In this document: piece after piece, positions 2,803 through 59,957 of the stretch
How positions within the stretch are numbered: position 1 is the stretch's first letter
Layout of the letters: every line of letters begins with the position of its first letter
Source: Dictyostelium discoideum
Lineage: Eukaryota
Reading direction: 5' to 3'
DNA length: 64,000 nt
NCBI GenBank assembly: GCA_000004695.1
Contig: CM000150.2
Coordinates: 2,080,001 to 2,144,000 of the forward strand
Made by a program: the position numbers and the translations under genes
Notes under the pieces: model-generated
The model's database searches: none
What the model was told of the DNA's origin: nothing
The model's input: the letters and a program-made list of their open reading frames with translations, nothing else

Positions 2803-5800
2803 ATGATAAATAATGAATTACCAATAAATGGAGATATTGGTGGTGGTGGTGTTGGTGTTGGTAGTAATGGTATTGAAAAAAATAAAGAAAATAATCAAGA
2901 TAAAGTTAAAGAATCAACAATTAGCACTAGAAAAAAAAGAGATTTAGTTCAATGTTCAAATTGTAGTATTCAATTACCAATATCATCATATAAAACTCAT
3001 ATTAGTAATTGCACACCAATTTATTCGAAACCATCGATTACATTATCAATAAATTCACCACCAAAACACCAATCATCATCTTCATTAAAAGAAGCCACAA
3101 AAAGACTTTCATTATCACCAAAATCTCCATCACAACAACCATTATCACCAAACTCAATTAAAACTAGAAAAATGACGGGATCAATACCAACTCCATTATT
3201 CATTATTAATAATAATAATAATGATAGTAACAATACCACAAATAGTAATAATACAAACAATACACCAAATTCTAAAATTAAGAGAGGAAGAATGTCATCA
3301 TCAAATGTAATCCAACCAAAACCAACAGTAAAGAAAACACCAACAAAATCACCATCATCAAAATCACCTTCAAAATCACCTTCAAAATCACCAACAAAAT
3401 CATCTTCAAAATCACCATCAAAATCACCTTCAAAATCACCATCAAAATCTGAAACAACATCACCAAAAAAGAGAAAATATATAGCACCAAATAATAGTTC
3501 ACAATCTACAACACCAACATCATCAACATCAACTTCACCAACATCAAAATTAAAACAAACTCAATATAAGGTAATTATTATTATTATTATTATTATTACT
3601 ATTATAATTTTATATTTATATATATATATATAAAATATTAATTTTTTATTATTTATTTTATGAAAAAAAGGGATGGGCAAAAAATACAATTAGTGAATGG
3701 AGAATACCAGAAGCACCAGTATTTTATCCAACTATTGAAGAATTTAAATCACCATTAAGATATATTGAATCGATTAGACCAATAGCAGAGAAATATGGTA
3801 TTTGTAAGATTGTACCACCATTCAAGAGTGATTCAATTACAAAGAATATTGATCCAAAGAAATTTAAATTTAAAACTAAAGTTCAAAATATACATCAATT
3901 GAAGAGACGTTGGAATGGACCTAATGAATTGTTTGTATCTGATTTATGTGAGTTTTTAGATAAGAAAACCAATACACCATTGGAATCATTACCAAAATAT
4001 GATGGAAGGGATTTAGATTTCTATACATTGTTTTTAGAAGTCAATAGATGGGGTGGTTGTAATGAGTGTACTCATTCCTCCAAATGGAATGAAGTCATAA
4101 AGGTATTGAAAGTAACTGATTTCTGTAGTAAACCAATTCAAACCTTAAAGAATTATTATCATCGTTATTTGGATGATTTCGAATCTGATAGTAGAAAGAA
4201 ATTCATGATAACTCATAAATTAACTTCAAAAGATCAAATTGATAATCATTTATTTGTAAATGAAATCATTCAACAATATAATCAATATAGTAAATTTTAT
4301 AGTGAATTTGAAAAAGAAGAATCTTTAAATAATATTAAAAATAATAATAATAATAATAATAACAATAGTGATGATGAAAGAGATGAAGGTTCTGATGATA
4401 ATAATAATCAAAATAAAAATATTAATAGAAATATTGAAAGAGAAATTATTATTGAAGATTCAGATGATGAAAAATTAAATAATAATAATAATAATGATTA
4501 TGATTATGATTATGAAGAATCTGATGAAGAATCTGATGATGACCCAACAAAAGGTGTGGTTTTAAGAAAAAAAGAATTAAAGAAACCAATAATACAAAAT
4601 AAAACTATAACTACTCCAAAGAAAAGAGGTAGAAAGAGAAAGGTTCAACAAGAAATTAAAAAGGAGATAGAAGAAGAGGAAGAGGAAGAAGAAGAACTTG
4701 TAGAAGAAGAAAAAGAAGAACACATTGTATATAATAATAATAATAATAATAATAATATTAAAGAAGATAATTTAAATGATTTAGATGATGATTCAGATGA
4801 TTCAGATGATTCAGATGATTCAAAACAAGAATTTGGATTTTATGAAGGTAATACATATTCTTTGGAGGAATTTGAAATATTAGCTGCAAATTTTTCAAAG
4901 AAATGGTTTCCAGATGGTAATAATGATCCAAATACGGTTGAAAATGAATTTTGGAGAATTGTAGAGAATGGTGATGAAAATGTTCAAGTTCATTATGGTA
5001 GTGATTTAGATGTTACAACACATGGAAGTGGTTTCTCTAGAACTACAAATACGCAACCAAATGAACATTGGAATCTTAATCAAATGCCAAAGATGGAGGA
5101 ATCATTATTCTCTCATCTTACAGAGACAATCGCTGGTGTAACCGATCCAATGATGTATGTTGGTATGTTGTTTTCATCATTTTGTTGGCATAATGAGGAT
5201 AATTATCTCTATTCTATCAATTATCTTCACAAGGGTACCTATAAGACTTGGTATGGTGTGCCAGGCTCATGTTCGGATCAGTTTGAGAAAGTTATGAAAA
5301 ATCTTGTGCCAGAGTTATTCGAAAAACAGCCTAACCTTCTCTACCTTTTAATTACAATGATTTCGCCAGATGTATTCAAGCGTCGTCATGTTCCAATCTA
5401 TAAATGTTTACAAGGTCCTGGTGAATATGTAATTACATTCCCACAAGCGTATCATGCTGGTTTTAGTCATGGTTTTACAATTGCTGAAGCTGTTAATTTT
5501 GCACCACCAGATTGGATTCCATTTGGCAGTAGTTCCATCGAAAGATATCAAGAGACTCATCGTTCTTCAGTGTTTTCTCATGATCAACTACTCTATACCA
5601 TTGCAAATAGATCACCATCATCTGATCTTTCAGTTTGGTTATCTAAAGAATTTCAAAAAATTAAATCAAAAGAAAACTCATTACGTAATCAATTATTAAA
5701 ACGTAATCCAACTCTAATCATTGAAAAATCTCAAAAATCAACCCAAGAAATCTTAAATAATGAACCACTTCAATGTTTTGTTTGTAAATATGATTGTTTT

Positions 5801-5897
5801 CTTTCTTTTATTCAATGTAGTGAACATTCAATTGAAATTGATGATTTTAATCAACATCAATGGTTAGATAATAGTAATGATAGTATAGGTAGTAATT

Positions 5898-5984
<87 letters not shown>

Positions 5985-6128
5985 GTAATAATAAAACTAT
6001 TAAAATTTGTTGTCTTTCTCATTTTGAAGATCTTTGTGATTGTAATAAAAAGAAATTAATTTCTATATTTTCAATTGAAGATTTAGATAAAACAATTTCA
6101 AGTGTAAATAAAATTCAACATCAACATC

Positions 6129-6220
<92 letters not shown>

Positions 6221-6499
6221 CCAATCCAACCAACATCAACATCAACATCAAATAGTAATAATAATAATAATATAATACAACAACAACAACAACAACAATC
6301 AACACCATTAACAATTAAACCAATTTCAAATGCTCCACTTTCACCATCTTTACCAACTACAAGAAATATTCTTCATAAACCTGTATATAAATTTCCACAC
6401 CCATCTTCAAATGAAATTTCTCCAACTCCATCACTTACTTTAATTTTCTCAAAAAATTTAAAAAATTCAAGTTTAATTAAATTTAAAATAAATAAATAA
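2803..6499 (+). CDS. JmjN-ARID-JmjC-C5HC2 histone lysine demethylase (KDM5/JARID1-like). Exons 2803..3570 and 3671..6499
   Basis: Exon 1 is an S/T/P-rich basic region with (KSPS)n SPKK-like repeats. A GTAATT donor follows at 3571 after ...QYK, and the acceptor AAG sits at 3668-3670. Exon 2 opens with the JmjN motif EAPVFYPTIEEFKSPLRYIESIRPIAEKYGICKIVPP. An ARID domain follows (RRWNGPNELFVSDLCEFLDKK...NRWGGC). The JmjC domain reads HYGSDLDVTTHGSGFS...MMYVGMLFSSFCWHNEDNYLYSINYLHKG...ITFPQAYHAGFSHGF. A C5HC2 zinc finger follows (CFVCKYDCFLSFIQCSEH). The C-terminus carries (AAT)32 and (CAA)34 tracts, giving poly-N and poly-Q. Confidence 0.75.
5889..6225 (+). repeat. Coding microsatellites (AAT)32 and (CAA)34 inside the JmjC demethylase gene
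   Basis: 5889..5985 is pure AAT repeat (poly-Asn). 6123..6225 is pure CAA repeat (poly-Gln). Confidence 0.95.
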
Positions 6500-6585
6500 T
6501 TTATAATTTTTTTTTTTAATATATAAAACTTTTTTTTTTTTTTTATTTGTTTTTTTTAGAAATGTTTGTTTAACATAATAATTAT

Positions 6586-7328
6586 TTATAAATATTGAAC
6601 ACCTATTATTTGAGAACCAATACATTTACCTAATTCTTGAGCATGATGGCTTTTATCACTATAATAATAAATTGTATTTTTAAAACAATAAAATATTTTA
6701 CTAACATCACCAACTGGTTTTATATCAACAAAACTAAATCTAGATTTTATTTTTTATTTTTTTAATTATCTAAAATTAGATAATGATAATTTTTCATGTT
6801 TTTTTTTTTTAAAAATTAATAATTAATAGTTACCCATTTTTTAAAATTTCTGAAATACCATTTGTAATATTTGAATAAATTCCATCCATACCACACATTG
6901 ATGATAATTGTTCCACTGATGAAACAAATAATGACCATGAAAATTGTCCATTTCCTTGAGTTTTTACATAATTCATCATTTGTAAAACACCTTTTGAACA
7001 AATACCATTTGTATCATTTTTATTATTCTCTATTATTACTTTCTTTTTTTTTTTTTTTTTTAAATTATTTTAAAATAAATTCAAATGTTTATATATAAAA
7101 TAAATAAAAAAATAATCTTACTTGAACATTTAATATTACTTCACTTGCAAACATTTCATATTCAATTGAATTTGAAAAAAGAAACCATGGAATATGGAAT
7201 TTTTCAGAATGATTATCATTTGAAAATACAGCTGGGGATGAGTTTGGTTTTGGTAAATCTTTACCTAAACTAAAATTAAAATTTAAATATAAGGTAATTA
7301 AAAAAAAGAGTAATAATATAGTTTTCAT
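6586..7328 (-). CDS. Hypothetical secreted protein with at least three exons (approximately 7124..7328, about 6840..7040 and 6586..about 6745). The middle and last exon boundaries are uncertain
   Basis: The minus strand starts MKTILLLFFLITLYLNFNFSLG, which looks like a signal peptide, followed by KDLPKPNSS...EYEMFASEVILNVQ and a GTAAGA donor. A second open segment reads ...NDTNGICSKGVLQMMNYVKTQGNGQFSWSLFVSSVEQLSSMCGMDGIYSNITNGISEILKNG. A third reads FSFVDIKPVGDVSKIFYCFKNTIYYYSDKSHHAQELGKCIGSQIIGVQYL* with its stop at 6586-6588. I recognised no conserved domain. Confidence 0.35.
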
Positions 7329-7967
7329 TATTTATTTTTTTTATAATTTTTTTTTTTTTACTAATTGTATTTTTATTTAAATAAACAATATACAATAAAT
7401 TTTTAATTTTTAATTTATACTCTTGATATTTTTTTTATTTTAATGAAAGAAATCTTGATAAGATTTATTTTTGTTTGTAGTTAAAAATGGTGTGAAATTT
7501 TTAGTTTTTTTTTTTTTTATTTTTTTTTTCTTTTTAATATTTCAATTTTCCAAGATATTGTTTATTTTTGGACCAAAAATAAGTGTGCCCCAAAACATAT
7601 AGTCTGAAGAAATAAAATAGTTATCGGATTTAAAAAATAGTTGTCAAAAATTGAAAAAATAAAAAAAAGAAAATAAAAACCATGAAAACACTAAATTATT
7701 AATATATTATTTCCAAATTTTTTTTTTCTTATCTTTTTTTTTTTTTTTAATGGGTTAATTACAACAATTATTTATTTCTTTGTTAAATTAAAAAGATTTT
7801 TTTTTTTAAAATTAATTTTGACTTATTAAATTTTGAGAAAATTAAAAATTAAAAAAAAAATTCCCATAATTGAAATTGTGCACACCCTTAAATTTTTTTT
7901 TTTTTATTTCAACTCAAATTTTTTACATTATCCTTAAAAACCCTCTTTATAATTTAAAAAAATAATA

Positions 7968-8687
7968 ATGTCAAAAGTTAAAAAAATAAAAACAGATAAT
8001 AATAATAAAATATTTCAAGATATTATTGATTTTGAAATTTTAAAATCTATAATCAATTATTTATTAATCAGCAAAAAAAATAAAAATAAAAATAATAATT
8101 AATAAATTTTATTTTAATAGAAATGAAATATTAAATTATATATTAGTTTCAAAAAAGTGGTATAATTTTATATCGTTAACAATATCAAAAAATATTATTA
8201 ATAAATTATTTGAATATTGGTTAGATATTAATCATAATGATTATAACTCATTTATTGAAAATTTTAATAATAAAAATCAATATGATAAAAATAATTTATT
8301 TTTTGAAAGTGGTAAACAAAATAAAATTAGGTTTAATAAAGAATTTTCAATTATAAAAATCAAAGAATCTGTAACAACTGGTGGTCGGTATCATCAGTAT
8401 TAATTTTTCCTAATGATTTCTTTATTGTGTTGGTTATTGCTGCTGAAGTTATTGGTGTTGTAATGTTGGGTGATGATGGTGGTGTCGTATGATTATTCAA
8501 TTGTTGTTGAGATTGTTGATTTATTAATTGAATGTGTTGTTGAAGAAGCTGATTTTGTTTATCTATTTGTTAACCTACAATTTTTAAATTTATATTATTA
8601 TTTTATATGGTGATTTTGTGTGTGGCATTTTTAATATCTGGTATCTAATATCTGTTATGAAAACTTTTGTGAAATTCAAATTAATTT

Positions 8688-19012: not shown

Positions 19013-19321
19013 AATAATCTTTATATATTTATTTATTTTTTAATATTAACAAGTTTTTAATAATAATAATATTAATAATAGTAATATTAATAATAGTAAT
19101 AAGAATAATAATGATTAACAAACAATAATAATTATTTTAATTATTAATTTATTAGTTTTATATTTTAGAGTTTTCGTTCGAAACTTATAAAAACTGAAAA
19201 AATGAAAAAAATAAGTTGATTCAAGCTTTACAGCATTCATATAATATTTTAATTGTGTGTTTATTTTTTATTATGACCATCCGGATATCCGAAGTTCGGA
19301 TTTCCATTTTACAGCAAAAAG

Positions 19322-19393
19322 CTCCCTGTCCGGGAATTGAACCCGGGCCTTTCGCGTGACAGGCGAAAATCCTCACCACTAGACCAACAAGGA
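19322..19393 (-). tRNA. tRNA-Asp (anticodon GUC)
   Basis: The minus strand reads TCCTTGTTGGTCTAGTGGTGAGGATTTTCGCCTGTCACGCGAAAGGCCCGGGTTCAATTCCCGGACAGGGAG. This gives a cloverleaf with A/B boxes (TAGTGG, GGTTCAATTCC) and a CTGTCAC anticodon loop. It is near-identical in layout to metazoan tRNA-Asp. Confidence 0.9.
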
Positions 19394-19469
19394 TGATTTT
19401 GTGATTTCTTTTTATTTTAGCCCGGAAATAAAGGTTTTAATTACAAACTAATTCTTAAAAATTAGTTTG

Positions 19470-19543
19470 TATTCAGAGCGGGAATCGAACCCACGACCTA
19501 ATCCGTGTTAAGGATTCGTGATAACCGACTACACCATCCGAAC
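19470..19543 (-). tRNA. tRNA-Val (anticodon AAC)
   Basis: The minus strand reads GTTCGGATGGTGTAGTCGGTTATCACGAATCCTTAACACGGATTAGGTCGTGGGTTCGATTCCCGCTCTGAATA. Anticodon stem AATCC/GGATT with loop TTAACAC. T-arm GTGGG TTCGATT CCCGC. The acceptor stem has two G-U pairs. Confidence 0.85.
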
Positions 19544-50760: not shown

Positions 50761-52590
<1,830 letters not shown>

Positions 52591-53096: not shown

Positions 53097-53977
53097 AATA
53101 AAAATAAAAACTTACAAAAAATAAAATAAATAAAAAAATAAAAAGGTAACTGATTTGATTTGATTTCTTTTTTTTTTGGTTAATCTTATTTTAATAATAT
53201 TATTATTGTTTTTTATTTTTATTGCCGTTGTGAAAAAAAAGACTTTGAAAAATTTTAAAAAAAAAAAAAAAAAAAAATTTTAAAAAATAAAAATAAAAAA
53301 TAAAAAAAAAAAAAATAAAACAAAAAAAAAGATTTTTATACACATTTTTTAAAATTTTAGATAATATCCTACTTCTTATCTTTTTAAACTCGATCGTATT
53401 TTTTTTTTTTTTTTTTTAAACAATATTTTTTATTATTTTCCTATTATTAATTTAGAATCATTTATTCTTAAAAAAGTAAAAACTATATTTTTTTTTCTTT
53501 TTTAACTATCCATCTTGAGGTATGCGGATATTGAAGTTCTAGGTAATCCAACCCTATTGTTTTTAACAACACTTGTGAAAAAAAAAAAAAAAATTATGAC
53601 CTTCATATAATTTAAGAGTGAGAAGTAGGGTTGTGGATTTGTTAGGGGCGTTTTTTTTATTTTTTTTTTACATACAACCTAATTTTTTATTTTTCACACA
53701 CATATTTTCAAATAAAATATGTAAAAAAAAAAAGTCCAAATCCCTTTCAAATAATTTAACTCTCTTTTAATCAACTTTTATTATCAAAATAAAAATAAAA
53801 ATAAAAATAAAAATAAAAATAAAGAAATATATAATAGCGGTCAACCCCACCATCATCTTCAACAACAACTTCACCATCATCTTGTTAATTAATTACACAT
53901 ACACTCTATCACACACCCTTATCAACTTAATTTATTTAAATCAAAACCCAACGAACAAACAATCAAACCATTAACAC

Positions 53978-54021
<44 letters not shown>

Positions 54022-54087
54022 AAAAAAAGAAAATTAACCAAAAAAAAAACACTTTATTAAACTTTGTTTTGATGAGTTAAAAATTAT

Positions 54088-54666
54088 TTAGTATTCTGTA
54101 CTATTTACATTTTGATCTATAATAATTACTTTTTTCCCCAATTTAATAATAAAATTAATGGTTATATATGGTTGCATAATATTGTGTGACTCACCTCTAC
54201 CTGTTTTTCCAAGTGTAATTCCTGTTTTTACATGTGTGGTTACAATATCCTTATGTTATTGATGATAATCAGAAAAACTTCCATGAGGACCACTACTGAA
54301 ACCACCTCCAATAGAATGCCATGTATGACCTGGGTCAATTACGGGATGATCATGAGATGGCAATTCTGAAACTGTTAAAAGATGATTTGTTAAACCAACT
54401 CCATTTCCTGCACCTATTGGACATTTACCACGAAAATCTGGTTTTGAAAATTCATGTTCACTTGAACCAAATGCATCTCCAATTTGTCGATATAATTCTG
54501 GATATGTTAATTTATTTAATGGAGCTCCATCACAAAGAGACCAACCAACTGGTATTTCAATACCTGTAAAAATATTAACTGATCCAGGTTGGATTGAATT
54601 TTCAATTTTTTTTTCTAAATTTGCAACTGCAAGTTTTTGTTTTGTTTCAATGGCTAATTTTGACAT
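54088..54666 (-). pseudogene. Phage tail-collar-domain (MdpB/'microcystin-dependent protein'-like) gene with one in-frame TAA (54256..54258). It would be about 192 aa if read through
   Basis: MSKLAIETKQKLAVANLEKKIENSIQPGSVNIFTGIEIPVGWSLCDGAPLNKLTYPELYRQIGDAFGSSEHEFSKPDFRGKCPIGAGNGVGLTNHLLTVSELPSHDHPV..., then * , then HKDIVTTHVKTGITLGKTGRGESHNIMQPYITINFIIKL.... This matches the tail-collar pattern P.GW..CDG..L....Y..L+..IG..+G......F.LPD+RG+.P.G.G...GL....LG...G.E...LT..++P.H.H, and the C-terminal motif HNNMQPY+.+N+II. Its GC content is about 38%, against about 25% for neighbouring genes. Confidence 0.6.
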
Positions 54667-54689
54667 TTTCTTTTTTAATCTTTTTTAAA

Positions 54690-54970
54690 TTACTTTGAAC
54701 TTTGTAATAGTTTATATAATAAGCCAGATTTCTTGATATAAATACAACAGTGACAATAAATGGTAAGATAAACATTAAGATATTTGATGCTTCTTCTTGC
54801 TTTGATATCAGCATTTGCTAAAGTTTCTGCACAATTTACCATTGCATTGGATACAGCAGTTGAAGATTTTTCAAGACCTTTAGAAACTTGTTTCAAACCA
54901 TCACCAATTTCAGCTCCACCTTATCAACTCCTAAACCAAGAGCACCCAAACTAAAACCGATGATTTCCAT
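54690..54970 (-). pseudogene. Small ORF with an N-terminal hydrophobic/Gly-rich segment, disrupted by a +1 frameshift; adjacent to the tail-collar ORF
   Basis: MEIIGFSLGALGLGVDK..., then a shift, then GGAEIGDGLKQVSKGLEKSSTAVSNAMVNCAETLANADIKARRSIK.... Same strand and same raised GC as the tail-collar ORF. No intron signals bridge the frames. Confidence 0.35.
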
Positions 54971-56448
54971 AAAAAAAATAGAAAAAACTCACAAAATAAA
55001 TATCTAATAATGATTGGGGAGTTTTTTTATAATTATAAATTTTTTTTTTTTTTTTTTTTAATTTCAAGAAAAATAAATAATTATTAGAATTTTTAAAAAT
55101 AAATAACTGGTAGGAAACAGATATTGATAAAATAGAAGAACTATTTATTTTAGAAGCTAATGTGGAAGTTTTGATCGTGTTCTATTAAAATTATTAGAAA
55201 TTATTAACTTAATATTTTAAAAAAAAAAAAATAAAAATAAAAATAATAAAATTAAATTGGTGCCAAAGAAAAAAAAAATAATTAAATAAAAAAAAAATTA
55301 AATTAATAAATAAAAAAATTTTAATTAATTAAATAAAAAAATTAAATAAAAAAATTAAATAAAAAAAAAAATTAATTAAATAAAAAAAAAAAAAAAAAAT
55401 AATAATAATAATAATAATACAAAATTGGTTAATTATTTACAAATATTAATATTGGTTTAATAATTTTAAAAATATATTTGTTTATGGTGTTTATGTTCTT
55501 TTGTTATGTTTAAAGTGATCAAAAAATTATAATTCAAACTTGTATACTATATTCATAACAAGCTGGAAGGATGATGTCTATATCAAGAGGATCAGAAGTC
55601 CATGGGAAGGGTTTGCCGAATTTACTTGATGAATGATTCATTTGAAATTTAAAACATTATGATTAATCGAGACATTTTTATTATATTGAGTTTGATTTTA
55701 TTGTGGAGTTTTCCCCTTTTTTTTTTTTTTTTTTTTTTTAACCCTTGCCCCTTTTTTTTTTGTAAACAAACTAAAATGGCTTTTTAAGAATTTATTTTTT
55801 ATTTTCCCACAAAAAAAATTCATAATGTGGAAATTAATAAAATAATGTTTTAAAAAAAGGGTAAAAATTAATAAGATGTAGGGGACTGTAAAATTAACAT
55901 TACACAATATCAAATTTTTTTTTTTCCCACAAAATCTATTTTTATACCAGTTCCATATACATTTGCTTTTTATTTTTTTTTTTTTTGATTATTTTGATTT
56001 TTTCACATAAAGTGTCATCAACAAATTAAAAATTTAATTTAAAAAAATAAAAAAATAAAAAAAATAAAAAAAAATTTTCAACTGAAAAACCATTTTTTTT
56101 TTTTTTTGAATAAAAAAATAATAAAAACTTATAGTGCTTATATGATCATATGACATTATTAAATAAATAAGTTTTTTATAATTTTATTTTTTTTTTAATT
56201 ATATAATTTTACTAGTAAAATTATTTAATTAATTTTTATTTGATCAATAAAAGTTGATTAAAAGAGAGTTAAATTATTTGAAAGGGGATTTGGACTTTTT
56301 TTTTTTTTTTTTTTTTTTATAAAAAAAAAATCTTTTATTTGAATACATATTTATATCACAAACAATTTGTTAAAAGTAATAAGAGAAAACTAAATAAAAT
56401 TATTTTCAAAGAAATAATTTTTTTTTTTTTTTTTTTTATTTGGTTGAT

Positions 56449-57155: not shown

Positions 57156-59957
57156 ATGTCAGAAGAACCAACCCCAGTTTCAGGTAATGACAAACAACTC
57201 TTGAACAAAGCTTGGGAAATTACCCAAAAAAAAGTAAAATATTATTATTTTTTCTATTCAAAAAAAAAAAAAAAAAAATAAATAAATAAATATAATAAAA
57301 TTTTATTAATTTTTTTTATTATTATTATTATTTTTTAAAAATATTTAGACTTTCACAGCATGGTGTAATTCACATTTACGTAAACTTGGATCATCAATTG
57401 AACAAATTGATACAGATTTTACTGATGGTATTAAATTAGCTCAATTATTAGAAGTTATTTCAAATGATCCAGTATTTAAAGTAAACAAAACACCAAAATT
57501 AAGAATTCATAATATCCAAAATGTTGGTCTCTGTTTAAAACATATTGAATCACATGGTGTTAAATTGGTTGGTATTGGTGCTGAAGAGTTAGTTGATAAA
57601 AACTTAAAGATGACTTTGGGTATGATTTGGACAATCATTCTTCGTTTTGCCATTCAAGATATTTCAATTGAAGAATTGAGTGCCAAAGAAGCCCTTTTAC
57701 TTTGGTGTCAAAGAAAGACCGAAGGTTATGACCGTGTTAAAGTTGGTAATTTCCATACCTCATTCCAAGATGGTCTTGCCTTTTGTGCTCTCATCCATAA
57801 ACATAGACCAGATTTAATCAACTTTGACTCTTTAAACAAAGATGATAAAGCTGGTAACTTACAATTGGCTTTTGATATTGCCGAAAAAGAATTGGATATC
57901 CCAAAGATGTTGGATGTTTCCGATATGCTCGATGTCGTTCGTCCAGATGAAAGATCAGTCATGACCTACGTCGCTCAATACTACCATCACTTTTCTGCCT
58001 CTAGAAAAGCTGAAACCGCCGGTAAACAAGTTGGTAAAGTTTTAGATACCTTTATGTTGTTAGAACAAACCAAATCTGATTATCTTAAAAGAGCCAATGA
58101 ACTCGTTCAATGGATTAACGATAAACAAGCATCACTTGAATCACGTGATTTTGGTGATTCCATCGAATCTGTTCAAAGTTTCATGAACGCTCATAAAGAA
58201 TATAAAAAAACCGAAAAACCACCAAAGGGTCAAGAAGTCTCTGAATTGGAAGCTATCTACAATTCATTACAAACTAAATTACGTTTAATTAAACGTGAAC
58301 CATTTGTTGCACCAGCTGGTCTCACTCCAAATGAAATCGATTCCACTTGGTCCGCTTTAGAGAAAGCTGAACAAGAACATGCTGAAGCCCTCCGTATTGA
58401 ACTCAAACGTCAAAAGAAAATTGCAGTTCTCTTACAAAAATACAATCGTATTCTCAAGAAACTCGAAAACTGGGCCACCACCAAATCTGTCTACCTCGGT
58501 TCCAATGAAACCGGTGACAGTATCACTGCTGTTCAAGCTAAATTAAAGAATTTAGAAGCTTTTGATGGTGAATGTCAATCATTGGAAGGTCAATCAAACT
58601 CTGATCTCCTCAGCATTCTTGCTCAATTAACTGAACTCAACTACAATGGTGTACCAGAACTCACTGAACGTAAAGATACATTCTTTGCTCAACAATGGAC
58701 TGGTGTTAAATCATCTGCTGAAACCTACAAAAACACTCTTTTAGCTGAACTTGAAAGACTCCAAAAGATTGAAGACTCATTGGTCGAATTCGCCAAGAGA
58801 GCCGCTCAATTAAATGTTTGGATTGAAGCTGCCGATGATCATGTATTTGATCCAATCAATGTTGACTCTGTTCAAGGTGTCCAAGAAATTCAAGAGAAAT
58901 TCGACGCTTTCCTCCACGATCAATCACAACAATTCGCTGAATTGGAAGCCCTCGCTGCTTTAACTCAACAACTCCGTGAACTCGGTCGTTCTGAAAACGA
59001 TTATTCAGTCATTTCATACGATGAACTCTCTGCCAAATGGAATAATTTATTGGCTGGTATTGAAGAACGTAAAGTTCAACTCGCCAATGAACTCACCACT
59101 CAAACCAACAACGATGTTCTTTGCCAATCATTCTCTGTTAAAGCAAATGAAATTTCAGATTATGTCCGTGTTACTTTAGATGCCATCTCACAAAACACTT
59201 CATCAGATCCACAAGAACAATTAAACAATATCCGTGCTATCATCACCGCTCATGCTGAAAAGAAACCAGAACTCGATGAATTATACACCATTGCTTCTCA
59301 ACTCGAAGAAGCTCAAGTTGTCGATAACAAACATACTCAACACAGTTTAGAATCAATTAAATTAAAATGGGATAAACTCAATACACTCGCTAAAAAGAAT
59401 GAACAAGTTGTTGAAGGTGAAATTCTTGCTAAACAATTAACTGGTGTTACTGCTGAAGAATTAAGTGAATTTAAAGGTATGTATAATTTATTTATTATAA
59501 ATATTAATTAAATTATTTAAAACTCGTCCAATGATTAATAAATAACTTTTTTTAATTAATTAACATGAACGAAAAAGCCTGCTTCTCACATTTCGATAAG
59601 GACAACGATAACAAATTAAATCGTCTTGAATTCTCCTCTTGCTTGAAGAGTATCGGAGATGAATTAACTGAAGAACAATTAAATCAAGTCATCAGTAAAA
59701 TCGATACCGATGGTAATGGTACCATTTCATTCGAAGAATTTATTGATTACATGGTTTCATCACGTAAAGGTACAGACAGCGTTGAATCAACTAAAGCTGC
59801 ATTCAAAGTTATGGCTGAGGATAAAGATTTCATTACTGAAGCTCAAATTCGTGCTGCTATCTCTGATTCTAAACAAATTGATTATTTACTCGCCAGTATG
59901 CCAGCTGTTGAAGGTGGTTTTGACTACAATTCATTTGCTGAAAAATTATACCAATAA
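57156..59957 (+). CDS. abpA: Alpha-actinin A (2 CH domains, 4 spectrin repeats, 2 EF-hands; 861 aa). Exons 57156..57233, 57349..59476, 59578..59957
   Basis: Exon 1 MSEEPTPVSGNDKQLLNKAWEITQKK, then a GTAAAA donor. Exon 2 TFTAWCNSHLRK... holds the CH domains (actin-binding KTFTAWCNSHL, LAFCALIHKHRPDLI) and spectrin repeats through ...AEELSEFK, then a GTATGT donor at 59477. Exon 3 ACFSHFDKDNDNKLNRLEFSSCL...DTDGNGTISFEEFIDYM...YQ* carries the EF-hands. Total 862 codons. Confidence 0.85.

Follow-up and report, generated by a model that had tools for sequence, protein, structure and literature searches.

The 64,000-nt window analyzed here (Dictyostelium discoideum AX4, chromosome 1, contig CM000150.2, positions 2,080,001 to 2,144,000) contains an inverted repeat that encloses phage-like open reading frames (ORFs), which raises the question of how such genes came to lie in an amoeba chromosome and what the repeat has to do with their arrival. 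A sequence-only reading of the window had taken the repeat for the ends of a terminal-inverted-repeat (TIR) DNA transposon, or of a miniature inverted-repeat transposable element (MITE), and had named the insertion of horizontally transferred DNA as a second option. The segment lies within a 4.6-kb spacer between a phosphodiesterase gene (pde) and abpA, which are transcribed divergently. Comparison with orthologous loci indicates that the apparent cassette is probably a pde-abpA spacer specific to the D. discoideum complex and not a mobile element, in which an eroded foreign gene lies between two copies of a host sequence, here called element E. The second option fits better, with duplicated flanking host sequence in the place of transposon ends.

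The orthologous loci were collected from nine other assemblies, using abpA as the anchor and taking 10 kb on each side; they include D. citrinum (L011), D. firmibasis (L014) and the assemblies designated ACTFIR (L017), ACTFIW (L018), ACTFIY (L013) and ACTFIZ (L015). A tree built from abpA exon distances pairs AX4 with ACTFIR and ACTFIY with ACTFIZ, with D. citrinum, D. dimigraforme and D. firmibasis as the next group and D. purpureum as the outgroup. ACTFIW was left out of the distance matrix, and its locus resembles that of ACTFIR. A second D. discoideum assembly has the same sequence as the window except for homopolymer lengths.

The two arms in AX4 are indeed reverse complements; their near-perfect core, put at 60 bp by the sequence-only reading, is about 50 nt long and adjoins an A/T run (11 versus 24 bases in the two arms). 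In particular, positions 53734-53782 (plus strand) match 56246-56295 in 49 of 50 nt, the exception being a G that only the right arm has. A search with the 49-mer core at up to 3 mismatches is expected to give 0 matches (100 dinucleotide shuffles), and for the 20-mer GAGTTAAATTATTTGAAAGG the window has exactly two occurrences where 0.01 are expected. With its flanks, the similarity spans about 100-130 nt (104 nt at 79% identity when ungapped, 97 nt at 88.7% when gapped). The right arm is element E itself (56180-56400, plus strand), about 0.9 kb upstream of the abpA ATG; its core includes GAGTTAAATTATTTGAAAGGGGATTTGGAC and is followed by a T-run and then by the conserved TTTTATTTGAA...TCACAAACAATTTGTTAAAAGT. 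The left arm (53703-53836, minus strand) is a truncated and inverted second copy, E', which aligns with the single E of each relative in the inverted orientation only.

The origin of the arms can be read from the sites that lack the enclosed DNA. At the cargo-free orthologous sites of six genomes there is one copy of E, oriented like the right arm of AX4 and likewise some 0.9 kb upstream of abpA, with a recognizable core in D. citrinum, D. firmibasis, ACTFIR, ACTFIW and ACTFIY and in a diverged state in others. The check for an empty orthologous site proposed with the transposon reading therefore goes against it: L011, L014, L017, L018 and L013 each retain one full arm, and a true empty site would have none. 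Since cargo-free genomes have a single copy at this very position, E is host sequence, derived from the pre-existing spacer upstream of abpA. The E core of AX4 is 95% identical to that of D. citrinum while the surrounding spacer is 67% identical, and its 30-nt center, GAGTTAAATTATTTGAAAGGGGATTTGGAC, is almost invariant among the species with E, where the flanking spacer is 67-78% identical. The 50-nt core is thus nearly the same in the two AX4 arms because it evolves slowly in every species that has E, and not as a result of recent transposition.

The arrangement of the copies differs between lineages. In ACTFIZ, two copies of E form direct repeats of 540 bp each, 77% identical (L015 2830-3371 and 8939-9500), and enclose a 5.6-kb insert with an ortholog of the AX4 gene described below. 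The inverted distal copy, shortened to about 130 bp, is found in D. discoideum proper only, so that E is repeated directly in one lineage and inversely in the other. Moreover, the AX4-specific segment, as defined against ACTFIR, ends at 55930, which puts the right arm (56246 onward) outside that segment and in conserved host DNA.

Together, these observations bear on a non-autonomous DNA transposon or MITE whose inverted repeats of 80-100 bp captured or delivered foreign DNA. A clear inverted repeat does bracket a lineage-specific segment, and D. discoideum has small inverted-repeat-bounded elements (the thug and DDT families). Against this, one arm is present at the cargo-free sites, the arms are direct in ACTFIZ, and the flanks of the two AX4 arms have diverged as much as the same sequence has between species. 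Inspection of the arm edges revealed no target-site duplication; the flanks, ...TTTTTCACACACA / arm / arm / TTATATCACAAACAA, share no abutting direct repeat, and the right-hand TCACAAACAATTTG belongs to the E region that is conserved in cargo-free species. The segment contains no transposase-like ORF, and Collar is the sole match in a Pfam search of its ORFs. Neither the 64-kb window nor about 240 kb at related loci, nor the element copies, contained a further copy of E (about 300 kb of Dictyostelium DNA were covered), and the E core had 0 exact matches in JGI metagenome contigs. A transposon of this kind is very improbable, and the comparative loci, with a single E where the cargo is absent and direct copies in ACTFIZ, exclude the arms as the terminal inverted repeats of a mobile element. 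As for its composition, E (56246-56400 and its orthologs) is made up of the 30-nt core, the T-run, a repeat of TTATTTGAA and the palindrome AACAATTTGTT; it may be a regulatory module of abpA.

The enclosed gene was correctly recognized by the sequence-only reading as encoding a tail-collar-domain protein. Its C-terminal half (54130-54666, minus strand) comprises an ORF at 54256-54666 and an in-frame continuation past a TAA to about 54130, and carries a tail-collar domain of the receptor-binding type. The ORF matches the full 57-position model of Pfam PF07484 (Collar) with 55.3 bits, well above the cutoff of 24 (E-value 6.5e-15), as well as the PHROGs 'tail protein' family (E-value 6.9e-21) and the T4 gp12 short tail fiber in the PDB (E-value 1.9e-5). 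A Gp10_C-type domain (PF21939) after the collar scores 20.8 bits, under the cutoff of 27; many homologs carry both domains. The small ORF with a hydrophobic N-terminus, also noted before, is located at 54650-54970 on the minus strand. Translations and alignment with a 187-aa ORF of ACTFIZ indicate that it is what remains of the N-terminal half of the same gene, an orphan domain with a hydrophobic segment, for which Pfam, PHROGs and protein searches returned no family or homolog outside the D. discoideum complex. The two ORFs align with one coding region in ACTFIZ and, because their reading frames differ only at A-runs, a single long ORF can be reconstructed. They were probably once a single intronless ORF of about 430 aa that began with an orphan N-terminus, also contained two hydrophobic segments and ended in a tail-collar domain.

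The rise in GC content over these ORFs, which had been noted as a difference from the surrounding genome, is real (34-37% over 54200-54500 and 33% over 54800-55000, versus 4-22% nearby). It is, however, not a signal of foreign DNA, because it is the normal level for Dictyostelium coding sequence; the abpA exons at 57.6-59.3 kb have 33-43% GC.

The gene is now a pseudogene in AX4. Where the sequence-only reading had seen both ORFs broken by a single lesion, comparison with the fuller ACTFIZ copy shows at least five: in the N-terminal half, a 1-bp deletion near 54921 and a 374-bp deletion near 54795, and in the C-terminal half a 33-bp deletion near 54386 and a 6-bp deletion near 54330, both inside the collar domain, and the TAA at 54256-54258. 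With this stop codon and the two deletions in the domain, an intact reading frame is absent. A third D. discoideum genotype, assembled as Logan short-read contigs, has an extra 5-bp deletion (54328-54332) and two substitutions (54952 and 54959); its deletion falls at the short TCAT-repeat site where AX4 is without 6 bp relative to ACTFIZ. The ACTFIZ copy itself needs two frame corrections, which could be real lesions or homopolymer errors of the assembly.

The gene lies between pde and abpA in independent assemblies, namely in the window, at L008, in the third genotype and in ACTFIZ, and is thus an integrated part of the chromosome and no contaminant. Since the abpA tree pairs AX4 with ACTFIR and ACTFIY with ACTFIZ, its carriers fall in both sub-clades. 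Between AX4 and ACTFIZ, the collar region has a synonymous divergence (dS) of 0.10 and a ratio of nonsynonymous to synonymous divergence (dN/dS) of 0.79, as compared with 0.12 and 0.05 for abpA. Because its dS matches that of abpA and its dN/dS is 0.79, the gene occupied this locus before the two sub-clades diverged from their common ancestor, and it has drifted nearly neutrally since then. It has therefore been inherited vertically since before the split between AX4 and ACTFIZ.

The next question is where the gene came from. Outside the D. discoideum complex, the relatives of the collar protein are phage, bacterial or metagenomic tail-collar proteins only, with 28-47% identity, in agreement with the phage or bacterial type first assigned to it. 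They include a protein of a phage-like metagenome contig with a tail-tube gene and an endolysin, and minor tail proteins of actinophages; in total, proteins similar to the collar half number in the tens of thousands in bacteria, phages and metagenomes, none of them above 47% identity. ACTFIZ_004665 was the only dictyostelid homolog in three protein searches (one exhaustive), and tblastn located no collar gene at the loci of D. citrinum, D. firmibasis, D. dimigraforme and D. purpureum. These similarities and absences support a gene that is foreign in type and was horizontally acquired. The alternative without horizontal transfer, in which a dictyostelid gene of native origin decayed where it stood, would accommodate the amoeba-like base composition of the gene and its vertical inheritance within the complex; with the syntenic site empty of it in four outgroup species, no dictyostelid homologs in the searches above, and an intronless structure bearing a domain of prokaryotic or viral type, it is hardly credible.

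The relatives of D. discoideum provide a candidate vehicle. Several of them contain a multicopy virus-like element, longer than 20 kb, with intronless and closely packed genes (L013 1-8920, which is the same region as L049, and L048, L050 and L047, from assemblies of ACTFIY, ACTFIR and ACTFIZ). Its proteins match the Capsid_N domain of nucleocytoplasmic large DNA viruses (NCLDV; 23.3 bits, just under the Pfam threshold) and Pox_VLTF3 (25.4 bits, just over it); copies other than that at the ACTFIY locus further include a dNK (E-value 2.5e-11) and a YqaJ nuclease. A 398-aa ORF of the element looks primase-like by eye. The element's gene family is present in several copies per genome, with at least 90% protein identity, in ACTFIY, ACTFIR, ACTFIZ and D. 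dimigraforme; of this family, AX4 has only a 69-aa fragment, DDB_G0277463. A literature search found no published description of the element, and its capsid-like protein had no relatives in the viral contig scan.

This element meets the pde-abpA spacer in two of the genomes. In ACTFIZ, the DNA inside the bracket formed by the E copies contains ORFs homologous to the element's 509-aa and 125-aa genes (E-values 2e-92 and 2e-33), which makes the collar gene there contiguous with element DNA. In ACTFIY, homology to the window begins exactly at the E core, and the capsid and VLTF3 genes of the element lie upstream; at the junction (L013 8770-8925), a 152-aa element gene breaks off about 51 codons in (...HPQKNW) and continues directly into the 5′ edge of the core, which adds a third junction at E, independent of the others. 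The two were considered as complementary halves of one insertion, and that idea was downgraded: the ACTFIY copy shares 97% identity with other copies, whereas the ACTFIZ fragments are 73-87% identical to modern copies in DNA and 52-53% in protein. The former is accordingly recent and the latter old, giving at least two events.

Two routes for the collar gene can then be weighed. In the first, it arrived with the large virus-like element, which is a possibility that falls somewhat short of an even chance and stands roughly level with the second. In the second, for which the odds are likewise rather below even, a tail-fiber gene fragment passed directly from a phage or bacterium to the amoeba, the element fragments of ACTFIZ and ACTFIY came later and separately, and the arms are host duplications. 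Direct transfer accords with the nearest characterized relatives, which are tail proteins of Arthrobacter and Microbacterium phages (31-34% identity) and T4 gp12, and with the top metagenome match in the phage-like contig. It also agrees with the composition of the element, since three copies examined are without the collar gene, and with AX4 itself, which holds a collar relic and no element fragment in the segment. On the other hand, no donor above 47% identity exists among 15 billion proteins. Further, the gene is AT-rich like the genes of amoebae and amoeba viruses, while a viral contig scan with the collar protein found relatives of at most 37% identity, the best of them in a contig of 61-64% GC. 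The orphan, hydrophobic N-terminal part is not phage-like, and in ACTFIZ a single E'..E bracket encloses both this gene and the element genes that adjoin it. Collar-domain fiber genes are also known from virophages and giant viruses, Organic Lake virophage OLV18 and OLV19 being examples (PMC3671162), which counts against direct transfer as well.

A more specific version of the viral route is that the AX4 pseudogene is the last remnant of the receptor-binding fiber gene of a large DNA virus, with capsid, VLTF3, dNK and YqaJ genes, that infects or formerly infected Dictyostelium and whose family has repeatedly landed or recombined beside E. Wild amoebae of the D. discoideum complex still have several copies of this family, with a mutual identity of at least 97%; this version is tentative, and more likely wrong than right.

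A related proposal makes E a preferred, attachment-like site of integration or recombination, with AX4, ACTFIZ and ACTFIY as three outcomes of repeated viral integration. Three different structures do have a junction at or beside E, the ACTFIY break falls exactly at the 5′ edge of the core where it joins a truncated element gene, and the recent ACTFIY copy and the old ACTFIZ fragment require more than one event. E was, however, not found at or in the other element copies, the ACTFIY element is truncated within a gene, which looks more like a rearrangement than a clean integration, and no gene for an integrase came to light. The repeated use of this spot could be explained just as well by homologous recombination with a resident relic, and an attachment site is unlikely. 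A tRNA-targeted insertion was also rejected, as the only tRNAs of the window are at 19.3-19.5 kb; these are a tRNA-Asp(GTC) and tRNA-Val(AAC) pair (19321-19543, minus strand), 75 nt apart.

The history that best combines these observations begins with a duplication of E, which would have accompanied or preceded the arrival of the foreign DNA. With its direct repeats of 540 bp, the ACTFIZ state looks like a target duplication of very great length. On the way to AX4, truncation and inversion of the distal copy would then have turned a direct repeat into an inverted one, so that the probable order of events is duplication, followed by inversion and deletion. The foreign DNA itself may have come in with the large virus-like element, diverged fragments of which lie inside the same bracket in ACTFIZ. 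The AX4 locus today is most likely without function, except that its 50-bp inverted repeat could promote local rearrangement.

Several observations weigh against this history or parts of it. ACTFIR and ACTFIW, the closest relatives, are without the cargo, which requires a secondary loss; their lack of the gene is probably such a loss. E is unrecognizable in the loci of D. dimigraforme and D. purpureum, so that its conservation is not universal. The left arm of AX4 retains a GTTGATT stretch that the distal ACTFIZ copy has lost; the distal copies of AX4 and ACTFIZ may accordingly be non-orthologous, or gene conversion may have acted. A dispersed family of E elsewhere in the D. discoideum genome is possible, as the scans covered about 300 kb and the metagenome contigs. 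With respect to the viral step, the element fragments of ACTFIZ are far from the modern copies in sequence, as given above, and tblastn of the collar gene (E-value < 1) found no match in L047, L048 and L050 (about 20 kb each); at the corresponding position, L050 carries an unrelated 401-aa gene. Moreover, no other collar protein was present in any dictyostelid proteome searched, a comparison of the window with two 20-kb element copies by tblastx gave no match, and the segment is without hallmark Pfam matches.

The AX4-specific segment (53634-55930), which holds E', the pseudogene and an orphan spacer, is replaced in ACTFIR and ACTFIW by about 360 unrelated bases. Colinearity with these two loci stops at 53633 and resumes at about 55931-56041, and no significant similarity links the 360-nt filler to the AX4 segment. 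A likeness seen by eye between AX4 53837-53975 and the ACTFIR filler was discarded, having a score of 14 against a shuffle mean of 10.7, with 25 of 500 shuffles reaching that score and other regions scoring higher. The orphan spacer upstream of the pseudogene (54972-55930) is AT-rich and contains a 35-aa ORF (55534-55641, minus strand) that matches nothing. Except for 55180-55235, which matches ACTFIZ, blastn and tblastx searches with this spacer returned no match, nor did Pfam or Rfam; blastn with a word size of 7 gave noise only.

The spacer also has two motifs, CCCACAA, at 55807-55813 and 55926-55932, that resemble the DUSE, which serves Dictyostelium small RNA genes as a promoter element; the DNA downstream of them shows neither an Rfam family nor the features of a Class I RNA. 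Known RNA families were set aside after an Rfam search of 53-57 kb at gathering and permissive thresholds, which gave matches at chance level only. A Class I RNA was rejected as well, because the arms and the DUSE-like motifs do not fit its AAG/G start, CUGU end, 11-nt motif and TGTG box 60 nt downstream.

The host genes on either side frame the segment. To the right, abpA (57156-59957, plus strand) encodes alpha-actinin A, and its spliced translation is 100% identical to the alpha-actinin of D. discoideum AX4; in an exact look-up, one ORF of the window also falls into a cluster of D. discoideum proteins. To the left, the 5′ part of a cyclic-nucleotide phosphodiesterase gene (51024-52500, minus strand) runs leftward from about 52.5 kb; it was delimited from its ORFs, and its orthologs in two related loci, L012 and that of D. 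firmibasis (L014), carry PDEase_I. Long (TAT)n and (TTG)n tracts at 52140-52460, at the 5′ end of this gene, read as poly-N and poly-Q on the minus strand. In ACTFIY, a large long-terminal-repeat (LTR) retrotransposon ORF with RVT_1, RNase H and integrase domains lies 3′ of abpA (L013 17274-22879, the same region as L049 1-1304), at a place where the window is without it.

The public gene models at this locus look like artefacts. At L008, a model at 3664-7534 (about 50.8-54.7 kb of the window) fuses the collar ORF to the phosphodiesterase gene and yields a product of 654 aa; another at 7558-8509 (about 54.7-55.7 kb) makes a 107-aa gene from the 5′ end of the pseudogene and the 35-aa ORF. The ACTFIZ model (P0166 in L015) cuts out the frameshifts, and even the conserved C-terminus of the collar domain, as implausible 'introns'. 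Current models that fuse pseudogene fragments to real genes call for caution in their use.

In its corrective value, the analysis shows that a striking inverted repeat around phage-like ORFs does not stand for a new transposon family. What remains belongs to a known class: a horizontally acquired gene, never domesticated, that is eroding between duplicated stretches of host DNA in a eukaryotic chromosome; the example is new. It is also dated, as the transferred DNA was present before the split between AX4 and ACTFIZ and is absent from the citrinum group. Outside the window, the same spot in wild relatives carries parts of an apparently undescribed, multicopy virus-like element, which provides a lead of its own. 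To our knowledge, no virus has so far been isolated from Dictyostelium; if the collar gene belonged to the element, the question of a Dictyostelium virus would become testable with existing strains, and if the viral-fiber reading were true, the laboratory reference genome would hold the fossil of a virus lineage.

Compared with known systems, the AX4 segment resembles TIR DNA transposons and MITEs (in D. discoideum, the DDT and thug families) in having two inverted arms of about 100 bp that bracket a few kilobases. It differs from them in that the arms are host spacer, single at cargo-free sites and direct in the sister lineage, with no target-site duplication, no transposase and no other copies found. 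The gene itself resembles phage tail-collar and short-tail-fiber proteins (PF07484; T4 gp12; the 'minor tail proteins' of actinophages; the bacterial 'microcystin-dependent protein' MdpB) over its C-terminal 150-180 aa, where the AX4 protein aligns over 80-90% of the length, including the region of the HxH metal-site motif and the NIMQPY...IIK C-terminus. Unlike them, it lies in a eukaryotic chromosome as a pseudogene, is at most 47% identical to anything known, and has an orphan N-terminal domain with hydrophobic segments in place of the fiber shaft.

With the endogenous elements of large DNA viruses and polinton-like viruses in protists, the locus shares intronless foreign DNA that is eroding in a protist chromosome and, in ACTFIZ, a collar gene contiguous with a multicopy element that elsewhere carries Capsid_N, VLTF3, dNK and YqaJ; the AX4 locus departs from them in that the window has no viral hallmark gene and the collar gene is missing from the element copies examined. 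The last comparison is with the duplications that arise where organelle DNA, T-DNA or viral DNA is inserted at chromosome breaks. The present duplication is, at 540 bp, unusually long, and too old for junction microhomology to be read in AT-rich DNA; as in those cases, foreign DNA lies between two local copies of host sequence.

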